Source: a virus
DNA length: 64,000 nt
Virus record (IMG/VR): IMGVR_UViG_3300031857_000054
Coordinates: 43,018-107,017 of that record
Direction: 5' to 3' (one strand)
Positions 17,761-61,505 of this stretch are shown one piece after another (positions within the stretch are counted from its first letter, which is position 1; the number at the start of each line of letters is the position of its first letter). The notes beneath the pieces are model-generated. The model was not told the DNA's origin. It made no database searches and worked only from the letters and a program-made list of their open reading frames with translations. Made by a program: the position numbers and the translations under genes.

Positions 17761-17769
17761 TAACCGAAG

Positions 17770-18486: not shown

Positions 18487-18503
18487 ACTAATAATATAAA
18501 AAA

Positions 18504-20984: not shown

Positions 20985-21138
20985 AGAAAAACTTGCTAAG
21001 GCGGCAGTAAAAGAAATGCAGCATATCAAGTACTTAACAAAACCATACTACAAAAAATCTAGGAAGTATATGCGTTTCTTGAAACTAGCACATTGCTTAG
21101 ATTGTGTAGACACAAACAACCTTAAAATTAAACTATAA
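20950..21138 (+). CDS. Small hypothetical protein (62 aa)
   Basis: ATG 20950 preferred to TTG 20869. Fills the gap to 21151. Confidence 0.55.
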   Translation: MTYLDDLNLTVKEKLAKAAVKEMQHIKYLTKPYYKKSRKYMRFLKLAHCLDCVDTNNLKIKL

Positions 21139-21150
21139 CTACGAAAAATA

Positions 21151-21714
21151 ATGGCAAACAAAGCATACAAACCTTGCTGCGAACCTAACAACTGTGGAGA
21201 GATTATTCCTTCAAAGTGTGTTAAGTATACTGGAACTCCTACTACGGATGGTCCTATTGATAAAGAGTTTACTTGTACTCCTTATCTGAATGACGTTATT
21301 CATTTATTTGATGATAATCTTAAAGACATTATTGGAAAAATCGGTATTAGCAAAACTGCGCTTGATGGTGCTAACTCATCTTGTGGTCTTAATTTGGTTA
21401 ATACTGGTTCTCTTACTACATATGAAGTTAATGATACTAGGTATGTTCAAAGTGAGGTAGTTGTACAACTGTTGAATGTTGTATGTGCTTTACAAAAACA
21501 AGTTAATTACTTGAAGAATGAGAATGTTACTACAGATAGTGGTAATGTATTCTGGCTTGATTTGCCTTTAGACCAAGATTTTAAAACATGGTTAAGTATA
21601 AACGGACAATGCGTTTTAACGGAACCTTGTGTACCTGCTGGTGGTATTACTACTTTACGTGGTTTACTTCAAGCTATGATAACTAAACTTTGTGACTGTT
21701 GCCCAAATCCATAA
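21151..21714 (+). CDS. Cys-rich tail-associated protein
   Basis: CCEPNNC..SKCVKYTG N-terminus resembles that of the next gene (GKCVTYSG). Ends KLCDCC. Confidence 0.6.
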   Translation: MANKAYKPCCEPNNCGEIIPSKCVKYTGTPTTDGPIDKEFTCTPYLNDVIHLFDDNLKDIIGKIGISKTALDGANSSCGLNLVNTGSLTTYEVNDTRYVQSEVVVQLLNVVCALQKQVNYLKNENVTTDSGNVFWLDLPLDQDFKTWLSINGQCVLTEPCVPAGGITTLRGLLQAMITKLCDCCPNP

Positions 21715-21725
21715 TCTAAAATATA

Positions 21726-39832: not shown

Positions 39833-42800
39833 ATGTACACCCCAGGAACAATCAAAGCAATTGGACTGATGTCAAAAGGCGTTAGTTCAGATAGGGCATT
39901 TGCAGAAGGCCGTAATATAGATTTACAAGCAGCACAAACTAGAATAAACTTCTATACTCAAGAAAGTTTAAAGTCTAGTATGCTTACTAGTTTACCTAGT
40001 ACTGCCTCTAGCACTAATATAAATACGCCAGGGGTAGCTTCTACAACTCCTGCAAAGGTTACTAATCCCACCCCTTCTACTACTATTAGTAAAACGTGGG
40101 ATGACATGATAAAAGAAGGCTACAAAAGAAACACAGGAGACGGTTCTTACCTAGCCAATGCACCTGGTATGGTTCAAGCACCCGTAGCAACTGGTTCACA
40201 AAAGAAGTTAAAAACTTTTTTTGATGATAGGTATATGCCTACACAGAAAGAGTTAGAGCAACAAAAGAACATTGAAGTAAAAGATGATTTACTTTATATA
40301 GAGAATTCACTGAAGAATAATGGTTGGGGAGTAAAGAATGCAAATGAAGGGATTCAAGTAGCAGCTCAAAGAACTGCTTCTATCCTAAGTAAGCCTGTGT
40401 CTGAGACTAGCTTAGTCGGAGATTTAACTAGTATGTTGACTCCTGAAAAACAAGCCGAAGTAAAAGAACAAGAGAAACAGAGAGTAAAGTCTTTTGAAAC
40501 TAGTGCTAGTAATTACTTTAAATCTACCAGTATTCCTGATTTAGTAAAAACTAAGAAGTTACTTTATACCGATATTGATGGTCAACTAAAAGATTTAGAG
40601 GAACAGTCTAAGTATTGGAGTCAGTCAGCTATTCGAAGTGGAGATCAACAATCTATTAAGGATAGCCAAGAAAGAGTAGGTAAGATTACTGCAAAGAAAC
40701 TTGAGTTAAACAAACTTAAGAATTCTCTTGAGGATACCTACGAAAAGAGAGTTACTGCTATTAAGAGTAAAGAAACAGTTGGTGCGTTAGAACAGTTAAG
40801 AACTAACTTTAAAACAGACGAAGATTTCTTAAAAAGTCTAGACTCTTTTAAAAACAAAGCAGGTGGATTGGCTACTGTTAGTAGCGACTTTACTAAGGTA
40901 CTTAAAGACATCTACAACGAAAACTACCTTGATAGAGCACTAACTGAAGCGGACATTGAAACAGGGGGTAAGAAGGTAATAAATGAAATTGCTCTTCAGA
41001 GATTTCTAGAAGGCACTCCATTGACTACTGGTGCTTTAGGAGAAGTTAATGAAAGTAGGTATGATGGCTTTAAAGGAGATTTAATCAAATCGCACCTACA
41101 ATTAGGTCAAGGTATTACTACTGAGTTGACCAATAAAGTTATTACTGCGGTAAAAAGACAAGAACAACTTGTTAAAGAAGCTGAGTCGTCTACTATAACT
41201 CCAAACAGACTACAGGAGATTCAGAAAGAAATCTCAGTACTGCAACAAAGTGTTGACTTTAATAAAAAGTTGATTGACAAAACTAGTGAGATTCATAATC
41301 CAGAAGCATTTAAGACAAACAAAGAGCTTACTAACTTCTTAGGTACATATGTAGAAAGAGAAGAAAAGAAAGAAGCTTTAAGTAAGTTTTACTTTAAGCA
41401 GGATTATGGAGTAGCTAAAGGAGCTTATATAGTAGGACGTACTGGTCAAAAGGTAGCACAGGGAGTAGCTCAGCAGTTTTTAGGAAACATAATTGAAGGA
41501 CTAGGAGGTGCTACAGGCTGGGAATGGCTAGAGACAAAAGGACGTAGATTCAATAACGCAGTTACAGTTGAAGAATTAGTAAACTTTGATAAGGTTAACT
41601 CTAGAGGACAATATCAAACTACTGCAGATTTTATTTTTGAAGATGCTGAAGGTAACAGAGAGTACAACCCAAGTGCATTAGTATTCCAAGGAGGTGAGAT
41701 GTTACCTCTAATAGTAGGGTCAATGTATGGTGGTGGTGCCATTGCAGGTGGTGCTGGCCGATTAATGGCTAGGAATTTAAAGACTCTAACTGCAAAAGGA
41801 ATGATGAGTAGTGCAAGAGCAGCACAATTCACAGGCACACTTGCAAAGACTGGTAGTTATAGAGCAGCATTTCAAAATGTAACAGCAGCTAGTAAGAATC
41901 CATTAGTACAACAGTTGAGTGCAAGAGTACCTAACGCAATGAGTATGACTGCAATTGTTTACCCCCAACAGTTTGTCGCTACTTATAGAGACTTATACGA
42001 GAAGGGCGTAGAGAATGCTAGAACTAAGGCACATGCAATTGCGAGTATATCTACAGGAATAGAAGTTCTTACAGAGAACATATTTCCTGATATGAAGTAC
42101 TTAGATGATTTTGCGGAGAAAGGTATCTTCGGCAAAGCCTGGGTAGGTAGTTATCAGCAATACAGAACTTTATATGGCAATGTTTTTGGTGATGCTTTTA
42201 GTCCTACGACTTTAGATTACTTAGCTACAAGATCTTTGAATCTAGCTGGTAAGGGAGCTTCTGTAGGTAGGTTTATGTTGGCTCGTGGAACTGAGGAAGG
42301 AATAGAAGAAGTGTCAGCAGAGTTAATGAACTTCTTTGCTGATAACGAAGGGCTAGCAAACTTAAAAGGAGAACCTGCAAAAGAATTAACAGTTGATGGT
42401 TTGATTACAGCATTTTCAGGAAGTTACTTTACGTTTCCAATCGGAGCAGGTAAACAGATAAAGGCACATAATGAAAATAGAAAGTATGGTGAGATGTACG
42501 ACATCATGCTTAATGCTCAGTACTATAAAAACAAAATAGACCAAGAGTTAAAGGCAGGTAAGATAACAGCCGACAAAGCTGCTACTGCTTTAGGTAAGAT
42601 ACAAGAGTTAGAGGCAATAGAAAAAGAATACGGAGTTCGTAATCTTAAGAATCTAGACAATAAGAAACTAGAGCAGCTAACAGATTTAATGGAAGATCAA
42701 CATCTTCAGTTTGATTACTTTAAGAACATCTTAAAGAAAAACTCAATTGATGAGAAACTTACTTCCTTAGACAAACAGACTTATACTGAAGACCAAAAGA

Positions 42801-45800
42801 AAGAGCTGATAGCTATGTCTGAAGAGGCAGCTAAGACAATAGACCAGTATAAAAAGAAGTCTGATTTCTACAGTCAATTAACAGATGAAGATAAAAAAGG
42901 AGTTCTTGACAATAGTATTAATGGTAAGTTACAGTTAACTCGTTTTGCTAGAACGGAAGACATAGAAAACTTAGGATCAAATCTTGAGGACTATGCGGCG
43001 ACGGTTGTTGCAAGTAGAAGACCTGGTTACTTTGTTGAAAGTATTAGACAGTACAGAGATAACGTCAAAAAGATTAAAGATGAAAGAGAGCAGGCCGAGC
43101 AAGATGCAATTGCAGGAGGCACTTATAATCCTTTAGTTGACGCTATAGAGAACAAAACTCCCACCACTACTCCTACTAGTATTACATCACAAGATGAACT
43201 TCAAGGAGTATTAGCACAAGCTGTCATGGCTCCAGACAGAGGCGGAGACTTAGTTGCTTATTTTAATGGATCATTTGATCAGCAGTTAGAAGCAATTGAA
43301 GCAGATACAGAAAGAGTTACTGCAATGTACTTAGAGTCAGTATCTAGCTCAGGACAAAGTGGTGACACTATAGAAATGCAACCTGATGGTACTGAAGAAA
43401 TCAGTACTCAAGAAAGAGATCCTATAGACAACGATAAGCGAATTGCGGACTTAACAGAAGAACAGCAAGATGAGTTGGCTGAGATGCTTGCTGAACTTAA
43501 TAATCAATACGATGATGTTTTAGAAAGAAAGCAAACTATTGCTAAGGTAGTTGGAACTGCTATAGACGCTGTAGCACCTAGCGAGATAATGGGAATGACT
43601 GATGCAGCTGCTCAGACAGAAGCTTACACAGAGTGGGTTAAAGACTTACTTACTAAAGTAACAGAGGAAGCAGAAGCTGTTAGGCAAGTTATGGCTGATG
43701 ATACTTCTTTAGCTCAGAGTGTTTTCTACGACAAGATATCTTATCTTGAATATAAAGCAGACAATAAAGAAAAAATTGACAAGAAGTTAGCTGAGATTAA
43801 AAAAATTAAAGAAGAGAGAAAAGCTGCTGAAACTCCAACTGTAGAAGAAACAAGAAATAATGTAACTGCTAAAGAGAAGTCAGAGGAAACTGGCAAAGAA
43901 GTTAGCATTGAAGTTCCAGAGTTGATTCAATCAGATGTAACTCCAGAGTTTGCACAAGGTCTTACTGCGTTGGAAACTATGCCAAAGAGTAGACTTACAG
44001 CAACAGCAAGTCAAGCAGCAGGAGATATTGTTACAGATGAAGAGTACAATGCCCAACGTGGTGTTGTTATTCAAAACCTATTAGGAGAAGTTCTAGGTTC
44101 TACTTCCTTGGATTCTGCTTTGGCTAAGATGTACTCTATTATGGAGGCGGCCGAAGTATCAGTAGAAGAGAAAGCAAAAACCTTAGAGTTAATGAAGAAG
44201 GTTGCAAACAGTGAGCCTGTGCTTGAAGAGGACTACACTCACATGTTTGAGTTACTTTTAATCAAAGCAAACCTTGACTTAGCAAAGCTTAAGTTTACAG
44301 GTCCCGAAGCAGAAGTTGAGGTACCAGCAATAGTAGCAACACAGGTTGACGAAAGAACTGCCGAAGAGATAGAAAGAACTACTGCCATTCCTGCTCCTGT
44401 AACTAAGAAAGCAAAGACTAAAAAAGTAGAGGCTAAGATTAGTTTACCTGCAGAACAACCTACTGCTGAAACAAATGTTATTGATACACTAGCAAACAAT
44501 CAAAAGATTGTAAGTGAAGTTAAAGTAGAAGTAGCTACAACAGAGGAAGCAAAATCTGAAGTACAGAGTAAGAATCAAATAGTAAGTACTAGTAAAATAT
44601 ATAGGCCTGGTGACCCAAATGCTAGAACTGCAGAGCATTTTACTATCCAAGAAAAAATTATTGAGTCTGTAGACAAAGAGTTTAGGACTGTTAATACAGC
44701 AGTAGTAGATTTGTTTACTATTGTGGAGCAAGTCTTAGGAGCAGAAACTTTAGTTAAGATGGAAGAAATCTTTGACGAAGTACAATCTAAACCTACACCA
44801 GAAAGACTGCAAGAGTTACGTGGGCAGTTCTTAAAACTATTCCCTGCAAACTTTATGGATATTGGGAAAATTGAATATATGTTTGATACTCAGATGGTTA
44901 AGAATGTTTCTCAGTCTGACTTAACACAAGTTAATGAAAGAAACCTTAATGCTACTGAAACTGAAATTTACCAGGTAAACAAAGGAAGAAAAGTTCCAGA
45001 AGTAAAACTAAAAGATGGTCGTATCATAAAAGATACTGTAGTAAGAGAGAGTAATGGAAAATTACTTTTGTTAAAAGCAGTAGATGTACTGGATGCAAAA
45101 GGTAAACCGATTACAGATAAAGAAGGTAAACCTATTGTTGATAAAACTTGGATTCGTTTTGAGCAAATAGCAAATCCTACTGAGATACTTGCCTACCCAA
45201 TAATAGGAACAGAGCCAATGACTTTTACTGCTTTAAATGTACTAACGTTTACAGTATTAGATGGTGATGGAAAAGTTCAGAAGTATAACAACAATGGGGA
45301 TAAGACAGAGTCAGGTAATAAAGTATTGATAACTTATTTGCCTACAAGTAAAGGAAAAGCAAATCCTACCCCACAGCAAAAAGCATTTGATACTATGAGG
45401 AATTCAGTATCCCAAGGAGAAAGAGTAGTACACAATGTAAAGATTACAGGACCTAGTGATAGTGATTCTGAAGTTACAATGCCAGACAAAACTGTTAAAA
45501 AAGGAAACTATGGATTTACATTCAGTACAGAAACTTTAACCCCTGTAGATAAGACATTACCTATAGCAGAAGTTGAAGAAGAAAAAGCAGTTACTCAAAT
45601 TATTGCAAATAAAGGGAATCAACAAGATTCTGTAAATGCTTTAGAGGTTCTAGTAAAGAAAGCTAAAACTATACCAGATCCTTCTAAAGAAGGTTACTTA
45701 ATTGACGGAGAAAGATATGAGCGTCAGTCAGGCTTCACTAGACGTGTTATGGGTAAGACTCAAGTAGATACAGAAGATTCTGTTATCAACATGGAAAAGG

Positions 45801-46687
45801 GAGCTGCTGTAGGTAACTTGTTAGACATCATTGGACGTGATGTTCTTGGAGGTCGTACCGTAAAATCTTTGAGTGAGTATATCAAAGAAGCAGAAGGTAT
45901 GGGTAAATCTCTGAGAGAAGGTAAAGGATACAAACTTGAGTTTACACAAGAACAGTTTGATGCTTTAGTAGCAGAACTAGAAAGTGTTAAAAAAGAACTT
46001 ACTCGTCAGGGATACAAAGTATATACTGAAGGACTTGTAATCTATCGTAAGTACACTCAGGAAGAAAAGGTAGCTACAGGTTTTGCTGGTGTTGCAGGTG
46101 CTATGGATATTGTAGCAGTAGACAAAGACGGAGGTGTTCATATCATTGACTTCAAGAACAAGAAGTTTAAGAATACTCAAACGTTTAAGTCAAGCATGTA
46201 TAACTCCAATGAACGTTTCCCTTCTAACATTAGTAAGTGGGGTACGCAGCAAACTGCATACGGTGTATTATCAGGTGACTTTGGTTTACCTATTCGTTCA
46301 ATTAATATCTTAGCTTTTGCTTCTCAGTATGAAGAAAGTAATGGAGTTATTACAGTTAATATGTTGAGTAAAGGTAGTGACCAGGTTCCTGTGTTAGCAC
46401 AGAACAAGAGTGACATTTCTGACTCAATTATTAGATTAAAATATGATAGCAAAATTGCTGCACAAATTAATTCACGTACAGTAAAGCCTACTCCTCAACC
46501 ACTTAACAAGGAAGCTGATAAAGTACAACTAGAGACTATCAAAGAAAATGTTCCTGATTTGACTGATTCAGAAGCTAGAAACGCTAGTCTTGTATTATCT
46601 TCGCTAGGTATGAATTTAAACAATGTAAAATCTGGTTTAGATTCTAAAGACGAAAATCCCACCACTAAAAATCCCCCTACCTGTTAA
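39833..46687 (+). CDS. Giant virion ejection protein with C-terminal PD-(D/E)xK nuclease domain
   Basis: 2284 aa. Gly-rich hydrophobic segment. VYTEG..GVAGAMDIVAVD..IIDFK..QQTAY RecB/Cas4-like motifs. Confidence 0.8.
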   Translation: MYTPGTIKAIGLMSKGVSSDRAFAEGRNIDLQAAQTRINFYTQESLKSSMLTSLPSTASSTNINTPGVASTTPAKVTNPTPSTTISKTWDDMIKEGYKRNTGDGSYLANAPGMVQAPVATGSQKKLKTFFDDRYMPTQKELEQQKNIEVKDDLLYIENSLKNNGWGVKNANEGIQVAAQRTASILSKPVSETSLVGDLTSMLTPEKQAEVKEQEKQRVKSFETSASNYFKSTSIPDLVKTKKLLYTDIDGQLKDLEEQSKYWSQSAIRSGDQQSIKDSQERVGKITAKKLELNKLKNSLEDTYEKRVTAIKSKETVGALEQLRTNFKTDEDFLKSLDSFKNKAGGLATVSSDFTKVLKDIYNENYLDRALTEADIETGGKKVINEIALQRFLEGTPLTTGALGEVNESRYDGFKGDLIKSHLQLGQGITTELTNKVITAVKRQEQLVKEAESSTITPNRLQEIQKEISVLQQSVDFNKKLIDKTSEIHNPEAFKTNKELTNFLGTYVEREEKKEALSKFYFKQDYGVAKGAYIVGRTGQKVAQGVAQQFLGNIIEGLGGATGWEWLETKGRRFNNAVTVEELVNFDKVNSRGQYQTTADFIFEDAEGNREYNPSALVFQGGEMLPLIVGSMYGGGAIAGGAGRLMARNLKTLTAKGMMSSARAAQFTGTLAKTGSYRAAFQNVTAASKNPLVQQLSARVPNAMSMTAIVYPQQFVATYRDLYEKGVENARTKAHAIASISTGIEVLTENIFPDMKYLDDFAEKGIFGKAWVGSYQQYRTLYGNVFGDAFSPTTLDYLATRSLNLAGKGASVGRFMLARGTEEGIEEVSAELMNFFADNEGLANLKGEPAKELTVDGLITAFSGSYFTFPIGAGKQIKAHNENRKYGEMYDIMLNAQYYKNKIDQELKAGKITADKAATALGKIQELEAIEKEYGVRNLKNLDNKKLEQLTDLMEDQHLQFDYFKNILKKNSIDEKLTSLDKQTYTEDQKKELIAMSEEAAKTIDQYKKKSDFYSQLTDEDKKGVLDNSINGKLQLTRFARTEDIENLGSNLEDYAATVVASRRPGYFVESIRQYRDNVKKIKDEREQAEQDAIAGGTYNPLVDAIENKTPTTTPTSITSQDELQGVLAQAVMAPDRGGDLVAYFNGSFDQQLEAIEADTERVTAMYLESVSSSGQSGDTIEMQPDGTEEISTQERDPIDNDKRIADLTEEQQDELAEMLAELNNQYDDVLERKQTIAKVVGTAIDAVAPSEIMGMTDAAAQTEAYTEWVKDLLTKVTEEAEAVRQVMADDTSLAQSVFYDKISYLEYKADNKEKIDKKLAEIKKIKEERKAAETPTVEETRNNVTAKEKSEETGKEVSIEVPELIQSDVTPEFAQGLTALETMPKSRLTATASQAAGDIVTDEEYNAQRGVVIQNLLGEVLGSTSLDSALAKMYSIMEAAEVSVEEKAKTLELMKKVANSEPVLEEDYTHMFELLLIKANLDLAKLKFTGPEAEVEVPAIVATQVDERTAEEIERTTAIPAPVTKKAKTKKVEAKISLPAEQPTAETNVIDTLANNQKIVSEVKVEVATTEEAKSEVQSKNQIVSTSKIYRPGDPNARTAEHFTIQEKIIESVDKEFRTVNTAVVDLFTIVEQVLGAETLVKMEEIFDEVQSKPTPERLQELRGQFLKLFPANFMDIGKIEYMFDTQMVKNVSQSDLTQVNERNLNATETEIYQVNKGRKVPEVKLKDGRIIKDTVVRESNGKLLLLKAVDVLDAKGKPITDKEGKPIVDKTWIRFEQIANPTEILAYPIIGTEPMTFTALNVLTFTVLDGDGKVQKYNNNGDKTESGNKVLITYLPTSKGKANPTPQQKAFDTMRNSVSQGERVVHNVKITGPSDSDSEVTMPDKTVKKGNYGFTFSTETLTPVDKTLPIAEVEEEKAVTQIIANKGNQQDSVNALEVLVKKAKTIPDPSKEGYLIDGERYERQSGFTRRVMGKTQVDTEDSVINMEKGAAVGNLLDIIGRDVLGGRTVKSLSEYIKEAEGMGKSLREGKGYKLEFTQEQFDALVAELESVKKELTRQGYKVYTEGLVIYRKYTQEEKVATGFAGVAGAMDIVAVDKDGGVHIIDFKNKKFKNTQTFKSSMYNSNERFPSNISKWGTQQTAYGVLSGDFGLPIRSINILAFASQYEESNGVITVNMLSKGSDQVPVLAQNKSDISDSIIRLKYDSKIAAQINSRTVKPTPQPLNKEADKVQLETIKENVPDLTDSEARNASLVLSSLGMNLNNVKSGLDSKDENPTTKNPPTC

Positions 46688-46689
46688 CA

Positions 46690-49600
46690 ATGAACGCTTG
46701 TAGCATAAAAGGAACGCCCTACGAAGAAGAGTACAGACAGTTTATGTCTGAGGGTCGAATGATATTTGCATGGAATAAAAACAATGAACAGCCTCTAGAT
46801 AAAATAAAAGTAGGTAATGAAGTTGTAGAAAATCCATTGTACACCGAGTTGATGGCTCATCCTATTACACAAGGTAATAGGACAGAGGCATTAAAAATCA
46901 TTGCCGAGACATTTCAAAGCGACTTTACAAGTAAGTATACTCCAGGAGATAATGGACAGTTTTCTTTAGTTCAAGTTATAGATTACCTACAGCAAAAACA
47001 AAAGAGAATTGAGGATGCTTTAGCTCAGAAGATACAGAGTGTAAACGTAACTACAAGTAAAAGTATTAACTTCTATGAGGCTCAGATTAACGGAACCCCG
47101 ACAGAGATTCACTTTAGTGATGCTGAAGGACAAGAAATCTTTGAAACCTTTGAGTACATGCTTGGTGAGTATGGTAGTTGGGCTGAAGTACAACAACAGT
47201 TATTAAGTCATAAGAATAACCTAATCTCTAAGATTGATCCCAACAACGCTACTAGTATAGACATTAAACAACTAAAGGCATTGGTAGAGATATCAGAAAA
47301 CTTTGAGTTGTTTAGAGATTGGTATGAGGACCAAGAAGGTGTAGTAGGTATAGAAGAACTCGAAGCTGAATTAGGAGAGAGTCAAGACTGGAAGACTAAA
47401 GAGAAGTCACAGAAAGAAAGAGCAAGTAAAAGAATCCTTGCACTAGTAACTTCACTGCCGTCTTATAGAAAAGCAAGTGTAGGAGAATACAACTTTGCTG
47501 AGGAGAGACCATACAAAAGTGATGAGAAGGTAATAATCCAAGGAACATTACTAGGTTTACCTAAGTCTGGTGACTTCCAAAAGAACTGGAACTTGTTGAG
47601 TACAGCTTTATCGGGAATTACCGATTATACAAAACAATATGATGAGATTGCAATCTTAGCAAAAACTCATCCTCAGTTTAACAATCTACTAAAAAAGATT
47701 CCTAACCCACGTGTAGCAAACAGTACAAAGACAATCAAACAAATTATGTTTGCTATGGGACTAAAGAGAATCTTTAGTAACCCAGAAACAATAGCTGTAT
47801 CCCTTGACGTAAGTAAGAAAGGTAACTCTGTGTTTGTTACCCAACAGATAAAAGGATTCAGAAACATCAAGAACCTATTCAATCAATTAGACAAAAACTA
47901 CTTTGCGTATAACAAAGACTACGCAATGGTGGGAGATACTGGTACAGAGTTTAACGTAGATAAATTTGTCTCTGACTTTTCAAATCTGTTTTCTAATGAT
48001 GTAGCTAAAGCTGCACTCATGATGAAGGATGTAAAGAAGAAGAAAGAACTTATCAAAGGTTTGTTTACTGGTCCTAATAAAAGTTACTACATCAATGAGT
48101 TTACTAAGTTGTTAAATGCACTAGGAGTAGGGTTATCTAATAAAGAGTATTTACTGCCTTCTAACATTGGTACAACAACTGAAATGTATGCTGAGTACTT
48201 TGCAAGTTTCTCAAACATCTTTGCTAAGTTAAGACTAACTGCTCAAATCAATAGTGAACTTTTAAAGAACAGTAGACCTACAATCAGTATTAAAGGTCCT
48301 TTGGCTTACATAGCAAATGCTGATGCGGCTGTTTTTCCTGATGGAAAGAACCCTTCTGAGGATGTTAAAGCGGCAGCACAACAACTTGTTTCTGATAGAA
48401 AAACTCCATTCAAGATAGAAGGAGTATTTGGTTTCCTACAGAAGAAGCAATCAGAATTAACAAGACTCGTAGAGTACATTAGTTCTTATGATATAGAACT
48501 TCGTCCTAGTTCTTACTTGACTGCAGAAGACAAAAAGAAGTTTATAAGAGGCCCATGGTTTTACTTGACTCAAAACACAAAAGCTGTTAATGAGGCTAGT
48601 AACTATGAAGAGTTAATTACAACTCCAGGTTTTGAAAGATTTGACTACCGCAAGAATCCAGATATTCTTGGATCTGTTTGGTTGACTCGTCTATTTGGTT
48701 TACCTAAAACTGTTAGAGAGATTGAAAGTCGTCCCCTCAATAGTTATAAAAAACAAGAGAAGTTTGGACTTCCTGTAAACCTTGAAATTAGAGACTTCAA
48801 TGGTATAGAGTTCAAGAACATGGGAGAAAAGGTAGGTAAAACTACCACTAACCTACATCCTGGTGATAAAGTTATGCAGGACTTTATGAGTTTCTTTCAA
48901 AGCACAGAGATGGAGAACATCCGTTTTGGAGACAAGTCAAGTTCATTTAGCATTTACTTCAGTAACCCTGTACTTGGAGAGAAGATATATGTCCCTATCT
49001 CTACTAGTAGATTAGAAGGAAAGCCTGATGGTGACGCAGAGATAAGTGCTAAGCAGCAATTCCTAGATACAATGACAGGGTATTTGCAATCTGAGTTCAC
49101 TAGAGTTTTGGATTTGATTAGTAACCCTCAGTCAGCAAATACTACCTATCAGAAGTACGGTAAGAACCTATTTATCTTCGGAGAGATTCTACCTGATATA
49201 GCAGACAAAGTAAAAAATGCAGAGACAAGAGAGCAACTAGTTAGTTTGTACGAACTTGCTGTACAATCACTTCCTGCAGCTTTAGATAACTATTTTAAGA
49301 AAGAAGCAAGTAATCTTGTACGTACTATGGTTAAGACTATGTCTTTGCCTATAGACAGACAATCTAGACCTACTGATGAAAGAACTAGATTGTTGAGTAC
49401 AGTTGCATCTTTGAATAAGTTAAAGTTTGTTAACAGCCAGTTACTTCCAAAAGGCTATGACTTAAAAGTAACTGCAAATAACCTACAGTATCTTGCTGAG
49501 TTGTACATAAAGAATGGATTCATCAACAACGTAGAGTTTATGAAATTCTTTGTAGGTGACTTAGCAAACTTCAATAAGACAGACAAAGATGCTCGTGAGG

Positions 49601-52600: not shown

Positions 52601-54186
52601 ACTATCTTCAGTTTGGTGTAGTTGTAGCACAACAAGAAAGTCTAAGAGAACTTACCAGTTTAGCTGATTTTAACACAGCCAACTACAGAACTACTTTCCA
52701 AAGTGTAGAATTGTTGGACAAACAAAGCACATTGAAGAGTGCATTTAATGGAGAGGCAATTGACTTTATGTTTAAAGACTCTGCCTTGGCACAGTTTAAC
52801 GTAGGTTCTTTCACTTTAGATTTGATGAGTGAGACTTTTCCTCTTTCTGACTCTAAAGAAGTACATGCTCAATTGAATAAGATGCTTGAGTTCTCCGAGT
52901 TAGTTTCTGAGGACGAAAGAAGAGAAGCAATTACTCAGTACAAAAACAACCTACTGTACACTCACGTGGCTATGAATGCTAAGAATGAAAATGGTTCTTT
53001 GCTTGAGTACTACAGAGGGAAAGATGGATTGTTTGTTAAAAACATTGAGAACAACATGGCTCAACGTTTTGAAAAATTAGCTTCAAATCCCGATCTAAGA
53101 GGAAACTTCCTATTCAATAACTTATACATAGAAGACGATAACATCTTTGACAGAGAGTTTAGTTTCCATTTAAGAAACATTGAAAGTGTTGAGTATGGTA
53201 AACAGTACAGAGAAGCATTCCTAGAAGGGCTTAATCACGCTGATGCAGAGGTTAGAAGTTTCTTTAAAGACCTAGCATTGGGTTCTTTTATGCAGAACGG
53301 AGCTCACTATAGAAGTAGGGATGTATCTTCAGTAGTTCCCTTTGAGGCTTACGTAGAATACACTGCAACAGCCTATAACGAGCTAATAGACATGAAGGAC
53401 AACAATCCTGAAATGTTTAGCAAGTACTTAAGTCTAGTTGGATTTGCTACTGTGTTATCCAGAGCCAACGGTTCTAGACCTCTAATTGCCCTTCCGTCTT
53501 ATCTTTCTCAGTATCATAAAGAAGCCATTGATGCATTCTATCAATTGACTCCCGAGTTAGTAGAAAAAGTAACTGCACTAGAGAATGCAGTTTTAGGAAA
53601 AGAAGTAAGCCCAGTTACAAAACTAGAAGGACAGATGACATATTCCTATGGTAATGAAAAACGTCCTGATGTTACTGCTACTACTACTTTTGATGCAATT
53701 CTTAGTGGAGAAAGAACTGCTACGACTCGTTTTGAAAAGGACGGTAAATTAGACTATTGGAAAAGTGCTAAAGTAGGAGATATTATTACTTGGAAATCAG
53801 GGGATGGTCGTACTGTAGATGTAGAAGTAACTAAAGCATTACATCCTTTAGTTGGTTCTGGAAAGACTCCAGAGATATGGTCTAAGTTAGAGGGATGGTC
53901 AATAGGTCGTTTTAATACAAAGGTAAGACCTCTGATAAATCAAGCATATCAGATTGAGTTTAAATTAGTTAAGAGTGTAGATGTTACCAATACAAATAGT
54001 TTAAACCAAGATATGTTTGGTCCAGCAGAAACTCCTACTGATGTAGTGCCTCCTCAGAATCCTACTCTTCCTACTACTGATAAAGGTCCAGTTAATCTTA
54101 AGAACAAGTTAAACCCAGGTCAACCTGGCAATGACGAAGGAAACTTAGATGGCTTGGGCTTTGAAGAGGTCAGCTGTGATGTATAA
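46690..54186 (+). CDS. Virion-packaged single-chain two-barrel RNA polymerase (phi14:2 gp66-like) with C-terminal ASCH-like domain
   Basis: 2498 aa. RIPVQG and SGGDYDIDKL (DxDxD at 51289-51303), LSTQMMK, HVDIAKE. FDAILSGERTATTR near the C-terminus. Confidence 0.92.
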   Translation: MNACSIKGTPYEEEYRQFMSEGRMIFAWNKNNEQPLDKIKVGNEVVENPLYTELMAHPITQGNRTEALKIIAETFQSDFTSKYTPGDNGQFSLVQVIDYLQQKQKRIEDALAQKIQSVNVTTSKSINFYEAQINGTPTEIHFSDAEGQEIFETFEYMLGEYGSWAEVQQQLLSHKNNLISKIDPNNATSIDIKQLKALVEISENFELFRDWYEDQEGVVGIEELEAELGESQDWKTKEKSQKERASKRILALVTSLPSYRKASVGEYNFAEERPYKSDEKVIIQGTLLGLPKSGDFQKNWNLLSTALSGITDYTKQYDEIAILAKTHPQFNNLLKKIPNPRVANSTKTIKQIMFAMGLKRIFSNPETIAVSLDVSKKGNSVFVTQQIKGFRNIKNLFNQLDKNYFAYNKDYAMVGDTGTEFNVDKFVSDFSNLFSNDVAKAALMMKDVKKKKELIKGLFTGPNKSYYINEFTKLLNALGVGLSNKEYLLPSNIGTTTEMYAEYFASFSNIFAKLRLTAQINSELLKNSRPTISIKGPLAYIANADAAVFPDGKNPSEDVKAAAQQLVSDRKTPFKIEGVFGFLQKKQSELTRLVEYISSYDIELRPSSYLTAEDKKKFIRGPWFYLTQNTKAVNEASNYEELITTPGFERFDYRKNPDILGSVWLTRLFGLPKTVREIESRPLNSYKKQEKFGLPVNLEIRDFNGIEFKNMGEKVGKTTTNLHPGDKVMQDFMSFFQSTEMENIRFGDKSSSFSIYFSNPVLGEKIYVPISTSRLEGKPDGDAEISAKQQFLDTMTGYLQSEFTRVLDLISNPQSANTTYQKYGKNLFIFGEILPDIADKVKNAETREQLVSLYELAVQSLPAALDNYFKKEASNLVRTMVKTMSLPIDRQSRPTDERTRLLSTVASLNKLKFVNSQLLPKGYDLKVTANNLQYLAELYIKNGFINNVEFMKFFVGDLANFNKTDKDAREVFKRIPFTSSPGTPPYWDSALQEFFKEDANQDSLSRIYTGTSHAFSPIVRTVVYNDILTFEADEFEKYKEVYNSGLWDSLSENERYEYDAYVNKSDEEANAQGVVTLDFYRNYLISIEGWSDAQEKSFNDQVRIAQITQDLKNNPANAQDLIEERRGLIEKTGNVPFPPLKLGHYGPIVEDPKLNALHKYSLVPLIPSAIIGKQLEKQLELMYQNRVDYYTFKSGSKMANYGEMLDFYKVAEDADGNQMKVMNDALSDRNVTSIHLHNLRQQQYQAPKFKGESTLSTQMMKLVFGDFYEFGELSTDFTEPTRQYVSSLYDRFKTSLNDLVKFEQVRLERKLGVTRNAEGKIENINQLQLANYLAKEFEKKEVSESLRKYIQVDDKGNFKYPLDAINDRSQIESMLLNLINSKVISQKIFGESYIQIAGSGFEASRFAKPTKEQLEKYGANDLQFYRVDPVTGETLPMEVRVGFNPEKHSGLLKLMYKEKPVGTLENLNEILKSDNPLALKFKEKYKEQLTMVGVRIPVQGFQSMEHVIVKEFLPESAGAIMILPAQIVVKSGGDYDIDKLTFFETAYDENGNVIDKAFDLKDYESKLAEQRELKKEKQRLLGILKVIKDEMNENEAYAQREDLKKELKKLDAEVKKSLKNLNGLLNREEFTKEDKEKGLDELSESKYALMRAVADLRSFDGKNDTKALNVMSALRKDLAEVNKKINQVDDYKKGITNNLVQTLKEVLSIGELYDHLVVPNNNNILTQYTGKSRPISTTQVFNPMTSWRIYAENILSKDALGIDAKINTMQKEFQRANLKFNSKLLNAYYFPSNKDAEGNIQLGGKKDQAGNRISKILSEFINGHVDIAKEDWIILLGMNQETSPLAHAMILAGTPVKTVIDFIKSKPIQLILELSNRPVINQKLDKAYFSKNSAIVSLIKSIAYEITDPDISKELQLIAKNQTDNRVKGKKALGQYIETLLSNPKINKYLTNFNPEVTLVPEETALRDLAYYLQFGVVVAQQESLRELTSLADFNTANYRTTFQSVELLDKQSTLKSAFNGEAIDFMFKDSALAQFNVGSFTLDLMSETFPLSDSKEVHAQLNKMLEFSELVSEDERREAITQYKNNLLYTHVAMNAKNENGSLLEYYRGKDGLFVKNIENNMAQRFEKLASNPDLRGNFLFNNLYIEDDNIFDREFSFHLRNIESVEYGKQYREAFLEGLNHADAEVRSFFKDLALGSFMQNGAHYRSRDVSSVVPFEAYVEYTATAYNELIDMKDNNPEMFSKYLSLVGFATVLSRANGSRPLIALPSYLSQYHKEAIDAFYQLTPELVEKVTALENAVLGKEVSPVTKLEGQMTYSYGNEKRPDVTATTTFDAILSGERTATTRFEKDGKLDYWKSAKVGDIITWKSGDGRTVDVEVTKALHPLVGSGKTPEIWSKLEGWSIGRFNTKVRPLINQAYQIEFKLVKSVDVTNTNSLNQDMFGPAETPTDVVPPQNPTLPTTDKGPVNLKNKLNPGQPGNDEGNLDGLGFEEVSCDV

Positions 54187-54216
54187 TTGCATTCGTTTAA
54201 AAATCTATTAAATTTG
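54187..54216 (+). promoter_or_regulatory. Bacteroidota promoter abutting the start codon
   Basis: TTG (54187-89), 19 nt, TAAATTTG (54209-16). ATG at 54221. Confidence 0.6.
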
Positions 54217-54220
54217 TATA

Positions 54221-57200
54221 ATGTCTTGTATTGCTAAAATAAAATCACCTGTAAGTGGTAAGTCTATAAATAGTCCTGCGTACTATCAACTAACTTCTTT
54301 CTTTTCTCAAGCAGAGGGAAAGAAGGTATATGAGGCTATGACCACAGATACCTTCAAGGCCAACTTTGGCTTTGATTGGACTAAACCACATATCGGTGCT
54401 AGCACACGGGTAAACTACGCAGGTGAGCCTAAGATTCGTGAGATTAACCAACACCTTAAGTTGGGGATGTCCGAAGAAGAACTACAAGCAGCAGAACAGA
54501 TTGAAGAGATTGGAGTACTTGGTTATTTGGGAGAAACGTTTAGTTCTCCTAAAGCACTTGAGAACATAGGACTAGAGATTCAGTTAAATCCTAAGTTTGA
54601 CATGATTAACTATGAAGTCATTTCTGTAGGAAACAGATTCCAGTTGTCAGTTAAACCTAAAGTAGGAGAGAAAAAACAGTATCCAATAAGTAGAGAGATT
54701 CTTGAGAAGTTTAAGTTTCCTCAGTTTGTTATTGACTCAGTACAGGATTTTAACAACGCAACATTTAAAGAGTTAATAGATAACCTAGCTAGTAACTCAG
54801 AGTTAGAACCTTTCCAACAAGAGATACTTAAGAAGCTGTCTCCCTTGATGTCAAAGAATCCTACACTGAAGTTAGCGTTGTTTGATGACCTCAATGTAAC
54901 TGACGAGTATCAGCGTTCGTTCTACGACCCCAAGACAAACACAGTATACATTGCAAAATCAACTTACACTCCTACTGATAATAAGTTCTTGGCTAGAGAG
55001 ATTATCCACGAAGCAGTACATGCTTTTACAATCTCTATCCTAAATAATCCAAGAAACGCACAAGAGGTACAGTTTGTACAGGAGATGGAACAGTACTTTC
55101 AAAAGTACAGAAACATGAATCCTGAGTTACAAAGCTACTATGGTCTTAAGAACGTAGAGGAGTTTGTATCTGAGTTCCTGTCTAATCCTTACTTCAGAGA
55201 GCAACTACAAGTAGCAGAGGCGCAAAAAGAGGCATCTGCAGGAATCATAGAACGGATGTGGAATAGCATCAAAGGATTCCTTAACAGATACATCTTTGGA
55301 GACATGGGTTCTACCATGTTTGACCAAGTGCAGGAAACCCTAGATGACTACTTTGATTACTTGATGACACTACAGGATTATCCAGAAAGTCCAGCAGAAC
55401 ATCAAGTTAGGTTTAGTCAGCCTTTTCAGAACAGAGAACAGAAGCCAACAATCTATAGTAAGTTAACTGACTTCTACGAATACATTGATAGTAACGTAGA
55501 TAGTACAATTTGGAATCAGTTGAGTCAGAACCTTACTGACATTGGTGGTAAAGAAACAATTGAACTGAGAGCAATCAGTCGTCTTCAAGATACCTTTGGT
55601 AAAATCTCTACATCGGATATTACAGGAAGTTTAATTGCGTCTGGACAGTTTGCAGTTGAGTTAAGACAGTTTACAGCTAAGTTAGAAGAGGATTTAGAAA
55701 TCTTAACTAGAGCTACGTCATACTATAGGCCTGATGTACTCCTTAAGAAGTACAATAGTGCTATTGCAATTGCACAGAGTATTAGAGAACAGATTGAGGG
55801 CTTCCAAAATAACCTAGTAGACCAATTAACTTTTGCTACTTTCTCAGACTACGAAGCTAAGCAACTTAGAGACGTAGCTCAGAAACGATTAGATCTACAG
55901 AAAGAAGTAGCAAATATCGAAGACTATCGGAAGATTATTGAGGATGAGTTAAAAAAATCTAAAGCAGCTGTAGATGCAATTGAAGATAGAGCTAGGCGTG
56001 CCATGCTTGATCCAGTAGCAGAAGTAGCTTCTCGTTTATTTATTAAGATTGCTGAGGACATGAAGAGTCCTGAGCATCCTCTTAGAAAAGAGTTAGCAGA
56101 ATTGCTAGAGAAAAAAGCATACTACGAAAAGGTTGGTAATAAGAAACTACTACTTGACGTTGATAAACAAATCGTAGATGTAAAAAAAGCACTAGCATTT
56201 GCACCTACTCCTGAAAACATTAGAGCCTTATTAAACTCTTCTATGGACCAAGCAATGGCCAATGAAAACATGTTTACTAGGTATCTAAATGTAGGTGGTT
56301 TTTCAGGTGTACCTATTGTAGACATTGTAAATGCTTTTATAAATGCGCATACCACAGATGCAACTAACGATAACTTAGAAAAAGATGCTAAGATTAGAGA
56401 GATAGAAGAACGTATAGCTGCAAGAAATCGTAAGAAAGGGATTGGTAGGAATGTTCTGCAAAGTGTAAAAGGACAATTTACTGTTAAAACTTCTAGCCTT
56501 AAGGACAAGTTTGAAGGATTCTTTAGAGTAGTTCCTATAAAGTATTATGATAAGAAAGGCAATGTCAAAATAGTTACTCAGAAAGTATACAACACTCCTA
56601 TGAAGGAGGCTGAGTTTCAAAATGACTTAGGAGATTTGCAACATGCTTTGTATAAAGCACGTAGAACTGGAGAAGTTGATAAGATTGAAGCAGCTGAAAA
56701 AGCGTTAAAAACATTTTTAGATGACTACTCACAGACTCAGTTTACAAATGACTACTATGAGGCAGAGAAATTATTAAGTGATGATGCTAGAGAAGCACGT
56801 CAAGAGTTACTTAATGAGATAGAAAATTATAGTAGTGTCTTTGGGGATGAGGATTTGGATGTACTTAGGACTAACTCTGTTAGAGGTTCTAAGTCAGAGA
56901 ACGATCCTACCATGCGAGAAATAAGAGCAGCTAAGCGTAGGGCTTATGTGAGATTAGGTTCTATCTATAACGAAGATGGTACTGAAAAACCTATTGGAAG
57001 TAAAGAACGTGATATAGCTGAGTCTATTATTGCTTACAACAAAGCACGTAAGGAGTTAGATGTTGTTGAATTTGTTATTGGAGAAGAGACTCTAAACAAA
57101 TTTAATCAGATTAAAGACCAATTTGTTAGAAGGATATCTGAACTTAAATCTCAGGTTAGCAGTTTACAAGATACACTAGATGCTGCTATAATCGCTAACG

Positions 57201-60200: not shown

Positions 60201-61120
60201 TGGCTTATGTTGCAACATTTGGACAACAGATTGTAACTATAGATAAGATTTTAGATGGCTATGGTCTTTTAGGTGAAGCTGTTGCAAGTATTCCAGGACG
60301 TACTAAAAAGTGGTATGAACGTGGTGCAAGCTTAGGTGATGTTGGAGAAATATTTGATGAACCATACTACGAGATGAGTAGTGATGGCAGTGGATATAGA
60401 TTGGCGAACCCCGCTATACCTTTTAACACAGGCCGAAGTAAGTTTGCAGTAGGATTTAGTAAAGTTATTGGTATGGAAGTAGGTGTTAAGTCTATGGGTA
60501 ATACAGGTTATAGACTTGCACAACAAGTTAAGTTTACTCCTGTTCCTGGAGTTACTAATCCATATGGTAGACTTAACGAGATTAACAGTAGGATGGATGA
60601 TATTTGGGATAGGTGGAGACTTAAGAGTACTGAAGACATCAAAGCTATTGATGATGCCGTTACAAGTGAGACAGATCCAACAACAGGAAAAACAAAGATT
60701 GTAGTAGACGAACAAGCAATTAAAAACATCGGTGGTTTAACTACTATGTCTAAAGAAGACAGAGCAAAGTTTGTAGTAGAGTATGTGAAACTAGCTCAAG
60801 AAAAAGATGCTCTACTTGATCCAAAAACAGGCTATTCTTTCTTAAGGTCATACGAAGAAAACCTACGTGTGTCTCAACAGTTGGGTCAAAAAGAAGCTGC
60901 GCAGAGAGATAAGTTTCTGAAGAAAGTAACAGGATACAAGAAACCTAAATTTGAAATAGGTCCTAAAGGAAAAGAAGTGTTAAAAGAAGCAAGTCAATAC
61001 AGAAAAATGCTTAAGGAAGAGTTAAACAACAACACAAGTTACTATGACTCAATTTACAATGCTAGTCCTGAGGATAGGGAATTGATGGACGAGATAGATA
61101 GAAATCTACCACCTGAATAA
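54221..61120 (+). CDS. Giant virion ejection protein with zincin metallopeptidase domain
   Basis: 2299 aa. FYDPKTNTVYI..IIHEAVH (55007-55021)..EEFVSEFLSNPYF. Long coiled coils. Confidence 0.82.
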   Translation: MSCIAKIKSPVSGKSINSPAYYQLTSFFSQAEGKKVYEAMTTDTFKANFGFDWTKPHIGASTRVNYAGEPKIREINQHLKLGMSEEELQAAEQIEEIGVLGYLGETFSSPKALENIGLEIQLNPKFDMINYEVISVGNRFQLSVKPKVGEKKQYPISREILEKFKFPQFVIDSVQDFNNATFKELIDNLASNSELEPFQQEILKKLSPLMSKNPTLKLALFDDLNVTDEYQRSFYDPKTNTVYIAKSTYTPTDNKFLAREIIHEAVHAFTISILNNPRNAQEVQFVQEMEQYFQKYRNMNPELQSYYGLKNVEEFVSEFLSNPYFREQLQVAEAQKEASAGIIERMWNSIKGFLNRYIFGDMGSTMFDQVQETLDDYFDYLMTLQDYPESPAEHQVRFSQPFQNREQKPTIYSKLTDFYEYIDSNVDSTIWNQLSQNLTDIGGKETIELRAISRLQDTFGKISTSDITGSLIASGQFAVELRQFTAKLEEDLEILTRATSYYRPDVLLKKYNSAIAIAQSIREQIEGFQNNLVDQLTFATFSDYEAKQLRDVAQKRLDLQKEVANIEDYRKIIEDELKKSKAAVDAIEDRARRAMLDPVAEVASRLFIKIAEDMKSPEHPLRKELAELLEKKAYYEKVGNKKLLLDVDKQIVDVKKALAFAPTPENIRALLNSSMDQAMANENMFTRYLNVGGFSGVPIVDIVNAFINAHTTDATNDNLEKDAKIREIEERIAARNRKKGIGRNVLQSVKGQFTVKTSSLKDKFEGFFRVVPIKYYDKKGNVKIVTQKVYNTPMKEAEFQNDLGDLQHALYKARRTGEVDKIEAAEKALKTFLDDYSQTQFTNDYYEAEKLLSDDAREARQELLNEIENYSSVFGDEDLDVLRTNSVRGSKSENDPTMREIRAAKRRAYVRLGSIYNEDGTEKPIGSKERDIAESIIAYNKARKELDVVEFVIGEETLNKFNQIKDQFVRRISELKSQVSSLQDTLDAAIIANDLSQAEAIQSLIFNKKLELEAEIKKQSDWLDANSRVEILPEFFEKQQNLSDQIKNILLKYGENPEVTEKYQRLFSAVKGFRDQDGTIQGSLVAEGLTKTIKDIEQSIEDLKKQIKKDSNISDADQNALKALFSELYNLQSKVNTPYYTETVETIKHKLEADLTGEQKTDIFNQANKEADAFMSNGNLLTLNQLRLLSSENFQPDEYFVGRNAEDFETQESDKEAIVSMFKEILVRKYLNEQLRETDWYKNNHVAITYEVKTGNMLVFPDGSSRPEMREVTEMRPIYIWRKTIPNNQKYIKRDSPSFDWATPRIRTEYKNPNYKFLGQARPRTDAKDNKYVNEEYTKLSDEEKGIMNDILAIYEDDQRSMPVSQRLKGYVMPNVSKESKEETVDYFRPLYKLYSAIKSLKVAFKENVVGQGDEEIEVDIREAQKKISRKTNVRLIKTRFKEPLSEGASTDNILGALHAYSMYAAEFKGLQKALPTVFAIRDTYAAKGKEARAKNPQDAATVWQKFKRSSGKLVDSVVGADESQKELILTQIDDQIARFFYGASLKTGNNAVSRVIDRLVNHMTNTFQKYVLKWNPMRVVKNITSNILNAVGNTSKFGLSKKDMLAGVAKAAYHRAEIIGLEQGMTKMTPYVAKLIYFRAIPLADPTDLYRTINSGFVTRYLNGDNYNAQIFSSNEAISTMGIYEAFMAKTYVPFEGPNAAPGTKIKLQDAYDYIDGKLVPKEGVFGINRSKLNELVAERNDFIISYLQTNGVDNYDKLSTVKKVELGKQLAAKFDTRIKAEEAFISSRVDKLKEVEREMRDKIFQLYTATQGNYTRRGRSYYQSVVWLKALMSMKAWLFPQASNMYGGKKFSITTGRMDQGMYSTFLGAVRRKALGVRRQGMSLAMDYQFTEREKEATQRVGWNMANASVMYLLSYYIVNSAMQALRGAGEDDDYSDWAQYLIAQLALGMFDENAGSLNPVFAPAIQYNKFKTDPLKKPYEEKGVAGRILSMAYVATFGQQIVTIDKILDGYGLLGEAVASIPGRTKKWYERGASLGDVGEIFDEPYYEMSSDGSGYRLANPAIPFNTGRSKFAVGFSKVIGMEVGVKSMGNTGYRLAQQVKFTPVPGVTNPYGRLNEINSRMDDIWDRWRLKSTEDIKAIDDAVTSETDPTTGKTKIVVDEQAIKNIGGLTTMSKEDRAKFVVEYVKLAQEKDALLDPKTGYSFLRSYEENLRVSQQLGQKEAAQRDKFLKKVTGYKKPKFEIGPKGKEVLKEASQYRKMLKEELNNNTSYYDSIYNASPEDRELMDEIDRNLPPE

Positions 61121-61193: not shown

Positions 61194-61505
61194 ATGAGCG
61201 TAAATGCAGAACAACTATTTAATGAGCAGTCTAAAAAGTTAAGACAGATTGCCGCAAGTACAGGTCTAATGGCAGGAGCTGGAGGCTTTGTACGTTACTC
61301 AACAGGAACTGTAAACGATGTACAGTTTACTGCAATTGTACCACAAGAAGACACAGTCTTTACTTCATTTAAAGTTAATGGAGTAGAACGCTTAACTGCT
61401 AATGGTATGAGTGGAGTTACGTTTAAGCAGTTTGCTTACCTTCCAGGTGGCGGAATTATTACAGGATTTGCTATCTCCTCAGGTAGTATAATTGCTTATA
61501 AGTAA
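61194..61505 (+). CDS. Small beta-rich protein, probably structural
   Basis: 103 aa ending ITGFAISSGSIIAYK, coupled to the next gene. Confidence 0.6.
   Translation: MSVNAEQLFNEQSKKLRQIAASTGLMAGAGGFVRYSTGTVNDVQFTAIVPQEDTVFTSFKVNGVERLTANGMSGVTFKQFAYLPGGGIITGFAISSGSIIAYK

Follow-up and report, generated by a model that had tools for sequence, protein, structure and literature searches.

Paired terminal cysteines point to a probable head-to-tail disulfide chain of giant cargo proteins in crAss-like phages

In this study, we analysed a stretch of 64,000 nucleotides of viral DNA (positions 43,018 to 107,017 of the IMG/VR record IMGVR_UViG_3300031857_000054, called the window below), which is the right-hand part of a 107-kb virus record with a completeness of 92%. 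The window encodes three consecutive giant proteins, P1, P2 and P3, the middle one of which was assigned as a virion RNA polymerase. These proteins are almost devoid of cysteine, and the few cysteines that they retain are located only at the ends that face each other in gene order. The same pattern is conserved across the order of crassviruses, it strictly follows gene splits, gene fusions and a moved gene boundary, and it is identical to the signature of two ejection proteins of the Anabaena phage A-4L (A4), which are joined by a disulfide. We propose, with a probability of roughly 70%, that the cargo proteins form a head-to-tail disulfide chain in the virion. A first-pass annotation of this DNA had suggested such a pairing, P1 to P2 to P3 in gene order, as a delivery mechanism.

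Cysteine content and placement in the window

The positions of the three genes and of the elements discussed below are as follows.

39833..46687, + strand: P1, first member of the proposed chain, 2284 residues, counterpart of phi14:2 g067 and crAss001 gp47
46682..46684, + strand: Cys 2284 of P1, codon TGT, the final codon ahead of the stop
46690..54186, + strand: P2, middle member, 2498 residues, assigned as a crAss-type two-barrel virion RNA polymerase with a C-terminal connector module
46699..46701, + strand: Cys 4 of P2, codon TGT
51289..51303, + strand: catalytic DxDxD motif of P2, DYDID, residues 1534-1538
54139..54183, + strand: acidic C-terminal tail of P2, 15 residues, conserved in alignments, bearing Cys 2496
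54175..54177, + strand: Cys 2496 of P2, codon TGT, the third-last residue
54221..61120, + strand: P3, last member, 2299 residues, counterpart of phi14:2 g065 and crAss001 gp49
54227..54229, + strand: Cys 3 of P3, codon TGT
55007..55021, + strand: HExxH of P3, HEAVH, residues 263-267, zincin-like metalloprotease motif

A computed count over all three open reading frames (ORFs) reproduced the four cysteines that the first-pass annotation had found by eye, at the same codons: the last residue of P1 (2284), residues 4 and 2496 of P2 and residue 3 of P3, out of 7,081 residues in total. When the two cysteine-free proteins encoded upstream are added, there are four cysteines in 8,602 residues over five proteins. 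The outer ends, i.e. the N-terminus of P1 and the C-terminus of P3, have none, as had also been claimed, and this holds for all scored relatives.

The remaining 33 + strand ORFs of the window have 120 cysteines in 11,826 residues (1.01%). At this background about 72 cysteines would be expected in the trio, and the Poisson probability of finding four or fewer is about 7e-26. The placement is equally skewed: under uniform placement, the probability that the 1 + 2 + 1 cysteines all lie within four residues of facing ends is about 1.6e-11, and in the 24 terminal residues, where about 0.2 cysteine is expected at a background of about 1%, four were observed, all on facing ends. The coding frames of P1, P2 and P3 contain one, two and one TGT or TGC codons, whereas the other two frames contain 31-47 and 118-131, which makes these triplets 30 to 130 times more frequent in the frames that are not coding. 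Each open frame was read from its first ATG; these starts are credible, because the N-terminal residues, including the cysteine, are conserved as protein at overall identities as low as 27-35%.

Identity of the three proteins

In tblastn searches, residues 1069-1540 of P2 matched crAss001 gp50 and other genes annotated as 'putative RNA polymerase' in many crassviruses, with an identity to the phi14:2 and crAss001 polymerases of about 21-25% across the polymerase core. The core alignment of P2, crAss001 gp50 and phi14:2 g066 (A1) ends in the catalytic motif, and the DYDID of P2 has its counterpart in the DFDID motif of phi14:2 gp66 (preprint 10.1101/2020.03.07.982082). Judged by its sequence, P2 is thus a crAss-type virion RNA polymerase of the two-barrel, DxDxD class, in agreement with the first-pass annotation. 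P3 matched phi14:2 g065, an 'RNA polymerase associated protein', also in tblastn. In the alignment of P3 N-termini (A2), the invariant residues were M1, C3, P10, G13 and H263-E264-H267, the latter belonging to the zincin-like HEAVH motif; a zincin domain was noted earlier in gp65 orthologs (10.1101/2020.03.07.982082). An AlphaFold2 model of the P3 head (mean predicted local distance difference test score, pLDDT, 76.9) gave nothing at E ≤ 0.001 in a Foldseek search of the PDB, and there were weak rows for a zincin, the anthrax lethal factor, at E of about 0.1.

Sequence searches of P1, P2 and P3 against PHROG, Pfam and the PDB returned nothing useful, and megablast of P2 against phage records gave no match; the homology of the trio came only from tblastn and from profile-seeded locus searches. 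In phi14:2 and crAss001, all three counterparts were found in virions by mass spectrometry (PMC10172136, 10.1101/2020.03.07.982082), and the delivered polymerase transcribes the early genes, early transcription being resistant to rifampicin (10.1101/2020.03.07.982082). By analogy with these homologs, for which packaging and delivery are known, P1, P2 and P3 are most likely the packed and injected giant cargo proteins of a crAss-like phage.

Conservation of the terminal cysteines in relatives

To collect relatives, IMG/VR was searched with the proteins as seeds, which gave 17 loci (P2 identity 34-98%, P1 down to about 24%), and with a profile of the polymerase core, which reached much further and gave 78 further loci. 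Twelve named phage records were added, one of them BK010471 in place of NC_024711. The IMG/VR loci partly overlap (L020-L045 repeat contigs of L001-L017), and the comparison set amounts to about 90 distinct records, which form 37 clusters at 90% and 18 clusters at 50% polymerase-core identity.

All 17 of the protein-seeded relatives had the identical terminal cysteines and no other cysteine, although the surrounding tails diverge. The first-pass annotation had proposed a tabulation across relatives, and in every scorable record (about 90) the terminal cysteines were conserved, not randomly placed, and obeyed one simple rule. Each end that faces another member of the block bears a cysteine, at residue 3-6 on the N side and 1-19 residues from the end on the C side, while the two outermost ends (N of the first member, C of the last) are bare in all scored loci. 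The number of terminal cysteines always equals 2 x (members - 1), that is 2, 4, 6 or 8. The N-terminus of the P1 homologs is free of cysteine at all loci, and their one cysteine is among the last 1-19 residues. When the final 100 residues of the protein preceding P3 were aligned (A3), no column but that of the cysteine was invariant.

The cleanest case among the named phages is phi14:2, in which g067 has its cysteine at position -1, g066 at 3 and -2, and g065 at 3. In crAss001, gp47 has a cysteine at -3, gp50 at 5 and -9 plus one internal, and gp49 at 5, and the rule is kept with gp47 on the opposite strand. It also holds in cr128_1, cr126_1, five Suoliviridae, p-crAssphage, crAss002 and the Flavobacterium phage Fpv1. 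We considered a cause at the level of DNA or of translational coupling and rejected it, since the crAss001-like phages retain the P1 cysteine with P1 on the other strand.

A few loci required closer inspection. One apparent exception (L044) contains runs of N, and another (L040) disappeared with a small ORF that is present in the block. In L056 (around 9010-9020), P2 is interrupted by a single in-frame stop and there is no new cysteine pair; this pattern is that of a nonsense mutation, sequencing error or read-through site and not of a genuine gene split. In L066 (2462-18792) the cargo genes are intact only when TGA is read through (17 + 15 sites), and the rule is then obeyed.

Several side observations were made in the course of this comparison. 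The annotated cargo genes of four of the five Suoliviridae (L098, L100, L103 and L104, not cr50_1) contain tens of in-frame stops, i.e. recoded stops. For crAss002 gp33 (L106, NC_055828, 15088-15200), the annotated start seems to lie 32 codons too early: residues 33-35 are Met-Ser-Cys, which matches the motif at the N-terminus of p-crAssphage gp44 and all other second members. A lone cysteine near the C-end is present in p-crAssphage gp47 (L105, 3588-6161; position -2) and crAss002 gp30 (L106, 4393-6066; position -8), in both of these Intestiviridae the first cargo-like protein ahead of the chain; the next protein is without an N-terminal cysteine, and the chain rule does not explain this residue.

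Internal cysteines were none or one in the clade of the window, in the marine phage phi14:2 and in Fpv1. They numbered 1-3 in the crAss001-like P2 proteins, 2-26 in Suoliviridae (26 in cr130_1) and 19 in L086. Internal cysteines had been named beforehand as an observation that would speak against the chain; the window trio has none, and some gut lineages do have them. The larger number in the named gut-associated lineages, in comparison to the window clade, phi14:2 and Fpv1, would fit a redox logic. In the crAss001-like loci L069-L097, two internal P2 cysteines, about 1067 and about 994 residues from the C-end, are conserved, with only one of them in crAss001; these may pair internally or form a metal site.

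Gene splits, fusions and a moved gene boundary

The cargo genes of crassviruses are divided differently in different lineages, which allowed us to follow the cysteines through rearrangements. In many lineages P2 is split into a core and a protein of 170-330 residues, the latter encoded in a 'gap' of 550-1000 nucleotides between P2 and P3. The core then ends in a cysteine, and the small protein has exactly two, one per end. This small protein terminates in an acidic tail that matches the conserved tail of the window P2 in alignment, and the window P2 is therefore the fused form; it has no internal cysteine, hence none at the point where its relatives are split. At the split site itself, L051 and L053 differ by swapped tail modules rather than by a clean split. 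L058 has five members, and both ends of each internal one bear a cysteine. Between its 1146-residue and 89-residue members (17600-18600) lies a 215-residue ORF with a GIY-YIG-like N-terminus and three cysteines, probably a homing endonuclease at or near a gene split.

Fusions show the converse. P1 and P2 are fused in L062-L065, in the five Suoliviridae, in Fpv1 and, with TGA as a sense codon, in L066, the homology having been checked for both halves. The fused proteins have no N-terminal cysteine and keep the pair with P3, and in L062-L064 the C-terminal cysteine is the sole cysteine of the entire protein. Intestiviridae have a fused P2+P3, whose one remaining pair is that with the upstream protein. 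We also considered a closure of P2 on itself, N- to C-terminus, combined with a bond between P1 and P3; this arrangement is disfavoured, as the P1+P2 fusions lose exactly the cysteines of the P1 C-end and the P2 N-end and keep the other pair.

In addition, a gene boundary was found to have moved. A second zincin-type HExxH domain, distinct from that in the P3 head and absent from the P1 and P2 of the window, adjoins the P1|P2 joint; lineages differ as to the side. It lies in the P1 tail in crAss001 (gp47, motif at residue 2157 of 2341), in the P2 head in L046, L048 and L058 (motif at 204-217), and in the middle of the protein in fusions (L063 and L065, near residue 2000). The tail of crAss001 gp47 aligns directly with the P2 head of L046 (E 1e-6); therefore the P1|P2 boundary has moved across this domain, and a cysteine is located at the boundary in both cases. 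By these alignments, the terminal cysteines are not positional homologs but are re-created wherever a gene boundary falls, always as facing pairs.

Linear facing pairs with bare outer ends, which come and go together, are the pattern expected from head-to-tail bonding and not from relaxed selection at floppy ends, homotypic dimers or one shared metal site. The pairing in gene order that the first-pass annotation had suggested, the C-end of P1 with the N-end of P2 and the C-end of P2 with the N-end of P3, thus gains support from the conservation, from the new pairs at splits, their absence in fusions and the bare outer ends, and, by analogy, from the A-4L precedent.

These data bear on two other explanations. 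The first is that the terminal cysteines have no function and merely escaped, on floppy ends, the removal of interior cysteines from ejected proteins. Suppression of cysteine is indeed known where no chain exists, as N4 gp50-52 have none at all (Schitoviridae, PMC11445570), and the tails are poorly conserved. However, the cysteine stays constant amid variable surroundings, no cysteine ever occurs on the outer ends of the first and last members, which are just as floppy, pairs arise at new splits and vanish at fusions, and four cysteines occupy facing ends against the roughly 0.2 expected. The comparative sequence data refute this explanation for practical purposes, and we regard it as hardly credible.

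The second explanation accepts that the cysteines are paired but not that they are oxidised: they could share in binding a metal ion, along with further ligands, or act as signals for docking or processing. Pairing by itself would suit a metal bridge as well as a disulfide, the cysteine of the P2 tail has acidic residues on its flanks, and a zincin-type motif lies near the junctions. On the other hand, there is one cysteine per side with no conserved histidine or second cysteine nearby, the cysteine being the only invariant column of the P2-type tail, and in A-4L, where the signature is identical, the map shows a disulfide. One Zn(Cys)4 or cluster site common to the three proteins was rejected, as the terminal cysteines are 2, 4, 6 or 8 in number depending on how many members there are. 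Intein-like or native-ligation chemistry was likewise rejected on the position of the cysteine, which stands at residue 3-6 and not at residue 1, and on the C side 1-19 residues from the end. Altogether, we consider pairing without a disulfide to be quite improbable.

Docking at the junctions and redox partners

We examined the second junction by co-folding the P3 head (residues 1-700) with the last 100 residues of P2, each partner given as a 12-row alignment, following the suggestion of the first-pass annotation that each C-tail be folded with the next head. The score was 0.54 (runs of 0.48, 0.54 and 0.58), while the best control reached 0.03; contact agreement was ≥ 23% and partner pLDDT ≥ 41. 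In the calibration of this score, 58 of 80 solved complexes attained the mark, as did 2 of 110 mismatched pairs, but scores of at most 0.60 belong to only 7 of the 80 solved complexes and to both mismatches. The prediction lends weak support to docking. The net charge of the last 20 residues of P2 is -6 and that of the first 20 residues of P3 is +3, and an acidic tail and a basic head would fit a docked joint.

A docked joint could also point to the main rival of the proposed chain, namely static staples: disulfides that lock a core of cargo proteins similar to a pre-ejectosome, or fix a 1:1:1 stoichiometry, with no covalent train, the links being broken or irrelevant before or during ejection. 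The conserved acidic P2 tail and the basic P3 head suggest a docked interface over a flexible tether, the A-4L disulfide sits in a pre-ejectosome ring above the portal, where it stabilises a helix-in-cleft contact, and the crAss001 tail uses disulfides structurally. Against staples, polyproteins of the same order show that covalent continuity of the whole set is compatible with delivery, and the chain is strictly linear and in gene order, neither of which a generic staple needs. We consider static staples unlikely, although comparative data cannot separate a train from a staple.

Proposed mechanism and its weighing

According to the disulfide-chain model, the proteins would be made and packed in the reducing cytoplasm, where each tail would dock on the head of the next protein. 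The docked joints would oxidise after assembly and release, giving two inter-protein disulfides that follow gene order, one from the C-end of P1 to the N-end of P2 and one from the C-end of P2 to the N-end of P3. In the finished particle, three separately translated proteins would thereby become one linear covalent chain of about 7,100 residues, which would mimic the polyprotein of other crassviruses. Covalent continuity should be compatible with function, because true polyproteins exist in the same domain order. Internal cysteines would be selected against, as a stray disulfide would create loops, branches or knots and hinder partial unfolding through the tail channel and the periplasm. The chain would secure the order and stoichiometry of ejection, and reduction of the thioredoxin type in the host cytoplasm would free the polymerase.

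Several points weigh against this model. Assembly takes place in the reducing cytoplasm and the gut crassviruses live in anoxic habitats, which is a difficulty for the timing and route of the oxidation that the model requires. Internal cysteines are tolerated in the gut lineages, i.e. the purge of cysteine is not absolute. The A-4L precedent is one of analogy, not homology. The phage's own genome gave no match to thioredoxin, nor to an Erv-type sulfhydryl oxidase, the latter search being uninformative in that its control matched nowhere either. Finally, the bond has not been seen biochemically or structurally in any crassvirus, and the crAss001 maps leave the cargo unresolved (PMC10172136).

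With these points in mind, we tentatively suggest, at somewhat less than even odds, a more general 'terminal-cysteine code'. Separate cargo proteins, the RNA polymerase among them, would be joined in gene order into a reversible covalent thread of up to about 1 MDa; this thread would be drawn through the tail in one piece and freed by the reducing cytoplasm. Genes could then be cut and pasted freely, disulfide and peptide bond being interchangeable, and the same code, of independent or very deep ancestry, would operate in unrelated podophages such as A4.

Crassviruses are the most abundant phages of the human gut. The structure of crAss001 raised the question of how folded proteins of about 700 kDa in all, an RNA polymerase among them, pass through a narrow tail, and a disulfide chain, if true, gives a concrete mechanism. 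It would also explain the near-total lack of cysteine in the giant proteins, the free switching of lineages between polyproteins and split genes, and how the order and stoichiometry of delivery could be ensured. The cysteine rule is also of practical use: it can correct start codons (as for crAss002 gp33), separate real gene splits from frameshifts and nonsense errors in metagenomic contigs, and identify which small ORFs of the block are cargo.

Neighbouring genes

The cargo block lies at the end of a crAss-type structural module, which contains terminase, portal, major head protein and tail proteins. Five large + strand ORFs follow in a row 3' of this module, encoding proteins of 959 and 562 residues, P1, P2 and P3.

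9310-11310, + strand: terminase (PHROG match)
11410-13860, + strand: portal (PHROG match)
15206-16735, + strand: major head protein (PHROG match)
reaching 31269, + strand: several virion structural proteins (PHROG matches)
35241..38120, + strand: 959-residue protein, candidate cargo outside the chain, no cysteine
38133..39821, + strand: 562-residue protein, candidate cargo outside the chain, no cysteine

Cysteine is equally absent from the homologs of both candidate cargo proteins (959-residue protein, 12 related loci; 562-residue protein, 14 homologs). The 959-residue protein had no match in PHROG; from gene order, it may be the positional counterpart of the crAss001 cargo protein gp45/gp46.

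Two further observations concern genes outside the block. Three consecutive tail-region proteins (20475-23651) are rich in cysteine (169 residues, 4.7%; 187 residues, 6.4%; 641 residues, 3.0%), the opposite of the cargo block, and are reminiscent of the ring and hub proteins that disulfides staple in the crAss001 tail. After the chain (61505-63133), there is a protein of 542 residues with 16% Asn, rich in Asn, Ser and Thr and poor in Lys and Glu, with strong matches to PHROGs of unknown function; it is probably a fibre or receptor-binding protein.

Comparison with known systems

The closest systems are the homologous sets of phi14:2 (g067-g066-g065, where g066 is the gp66 of the crystal structure) and crAss001 (gp47/gp50/gp49), which also lie downstream of the structural genes and have the same terminal cysteine pattern as the window. 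In contrast to the window, crAss001 has one internal cysteine and encodes gp47 on the opposite strand. In the window the connector module is part of P2, and in many relatives it is a separate gene. The expectation that crAss cargo passes the tail unfolded accords with crAss001, for which the cargo is thought to be ejected partly unfolded through constrictions under 50 Å (Bayfield et al. 2023, PMC10172136). Disulfides in crAss001 particles are known from the tail hub and ring proteins and from the gp57 dimer (PMC10172136).

The polyproteins of other crassviruses, P1+P2 in Suoliviridae and P2+P3 in Intestiviridae, hold the same domains in the same order and covalently joined. Such RNA polymerase polyproteins were noted earlier and proteolytic cleavage was assumed (10.1101/2020.03.07.982082). 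Their joint is a peptide bond, which is not reducible, whereas the joint proposed for the window is a disulfide.

The N4-type phages resemble the window in that a giant virion RNA polymerase is ejected with partners and cysteine is strongly suppressed. As the first-pass annotation had stated for the N4 polymerase, gp50, and as we found also for gp51 and gp52, cysteine is completely absent, so that no chain is possible, whereas the window has four conserved terminal cysteines. For the ejection proteins of Schitoviridae (N4 gp50 virion RNA polymerase, gp51 and gp52; DEV gp71-73) the suppression was explained by the oxidising periplasm (PMC11445570). The polymerases differ as well, that of N4 having a T7-like single-subunit fold and P2 being of the two-barrel type.

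A4 is a T7-like cyanophage, not a crassvirus. Its cryo-EM structure shows a disulfide between gp27 Cys1715 and gp26 Cys5 in the pre-ejectosome (PNAS 2025, PMC12002296), which stabilises the insertion of the gp27 C-terminal helix into a cleft of gp26 in a pentameric ring above the portal; its authors suggest a chain reaction at ejection (PMC12002296). In the A-4L genome, we found that gp27 (1717 residues) has its sole cysteine at -3, after a proline, and gp26 (1114 residues) at residue 5. As in the window trio, these are consecutive, very large internal virion proteins that are free of cysteine except at the facing ends, and a cysteine at the upstream C-end followed by one within the first six residues of the next protein was found in the window, in A-4L and in the relatives. 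The A4 system has one link between two proteins and no RNA polymerase in the pair, while the window has two links between three proteins, one of them a polymerase, and its relatives have one to four links. A rule by which cysteine pairs track gene fission and fusion was not described for A4. Neither blastp nor phmmer matched P1, P2 or P3 to A-4L gp26 or gp27 below E 0.3, and no A4 chain came up in the Foldseek search with the P3 head model.

The phi14:2 polymerase preprint, the crAss001 structural atlas and a 2026 N4 paper on crassvirus cargo do not mention cysteines, and a full-text literature search gave no description of a terminal-cysteine or disulfide chain for crassviruses. The earlier statement that such a mechanism was undescribed thus stands for crassviruses and not in general, as a single head-to-tail disulfide between ejection proteins has already been published for A4 (PMC12002296). 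What is new here is the proposed multi-link chain that includes a virion RNA polymerase, its pattern being conserved across the order and beyond (Fpv1), and the added rule by which disulfide and peptide bond would be interchangeable at each joint.

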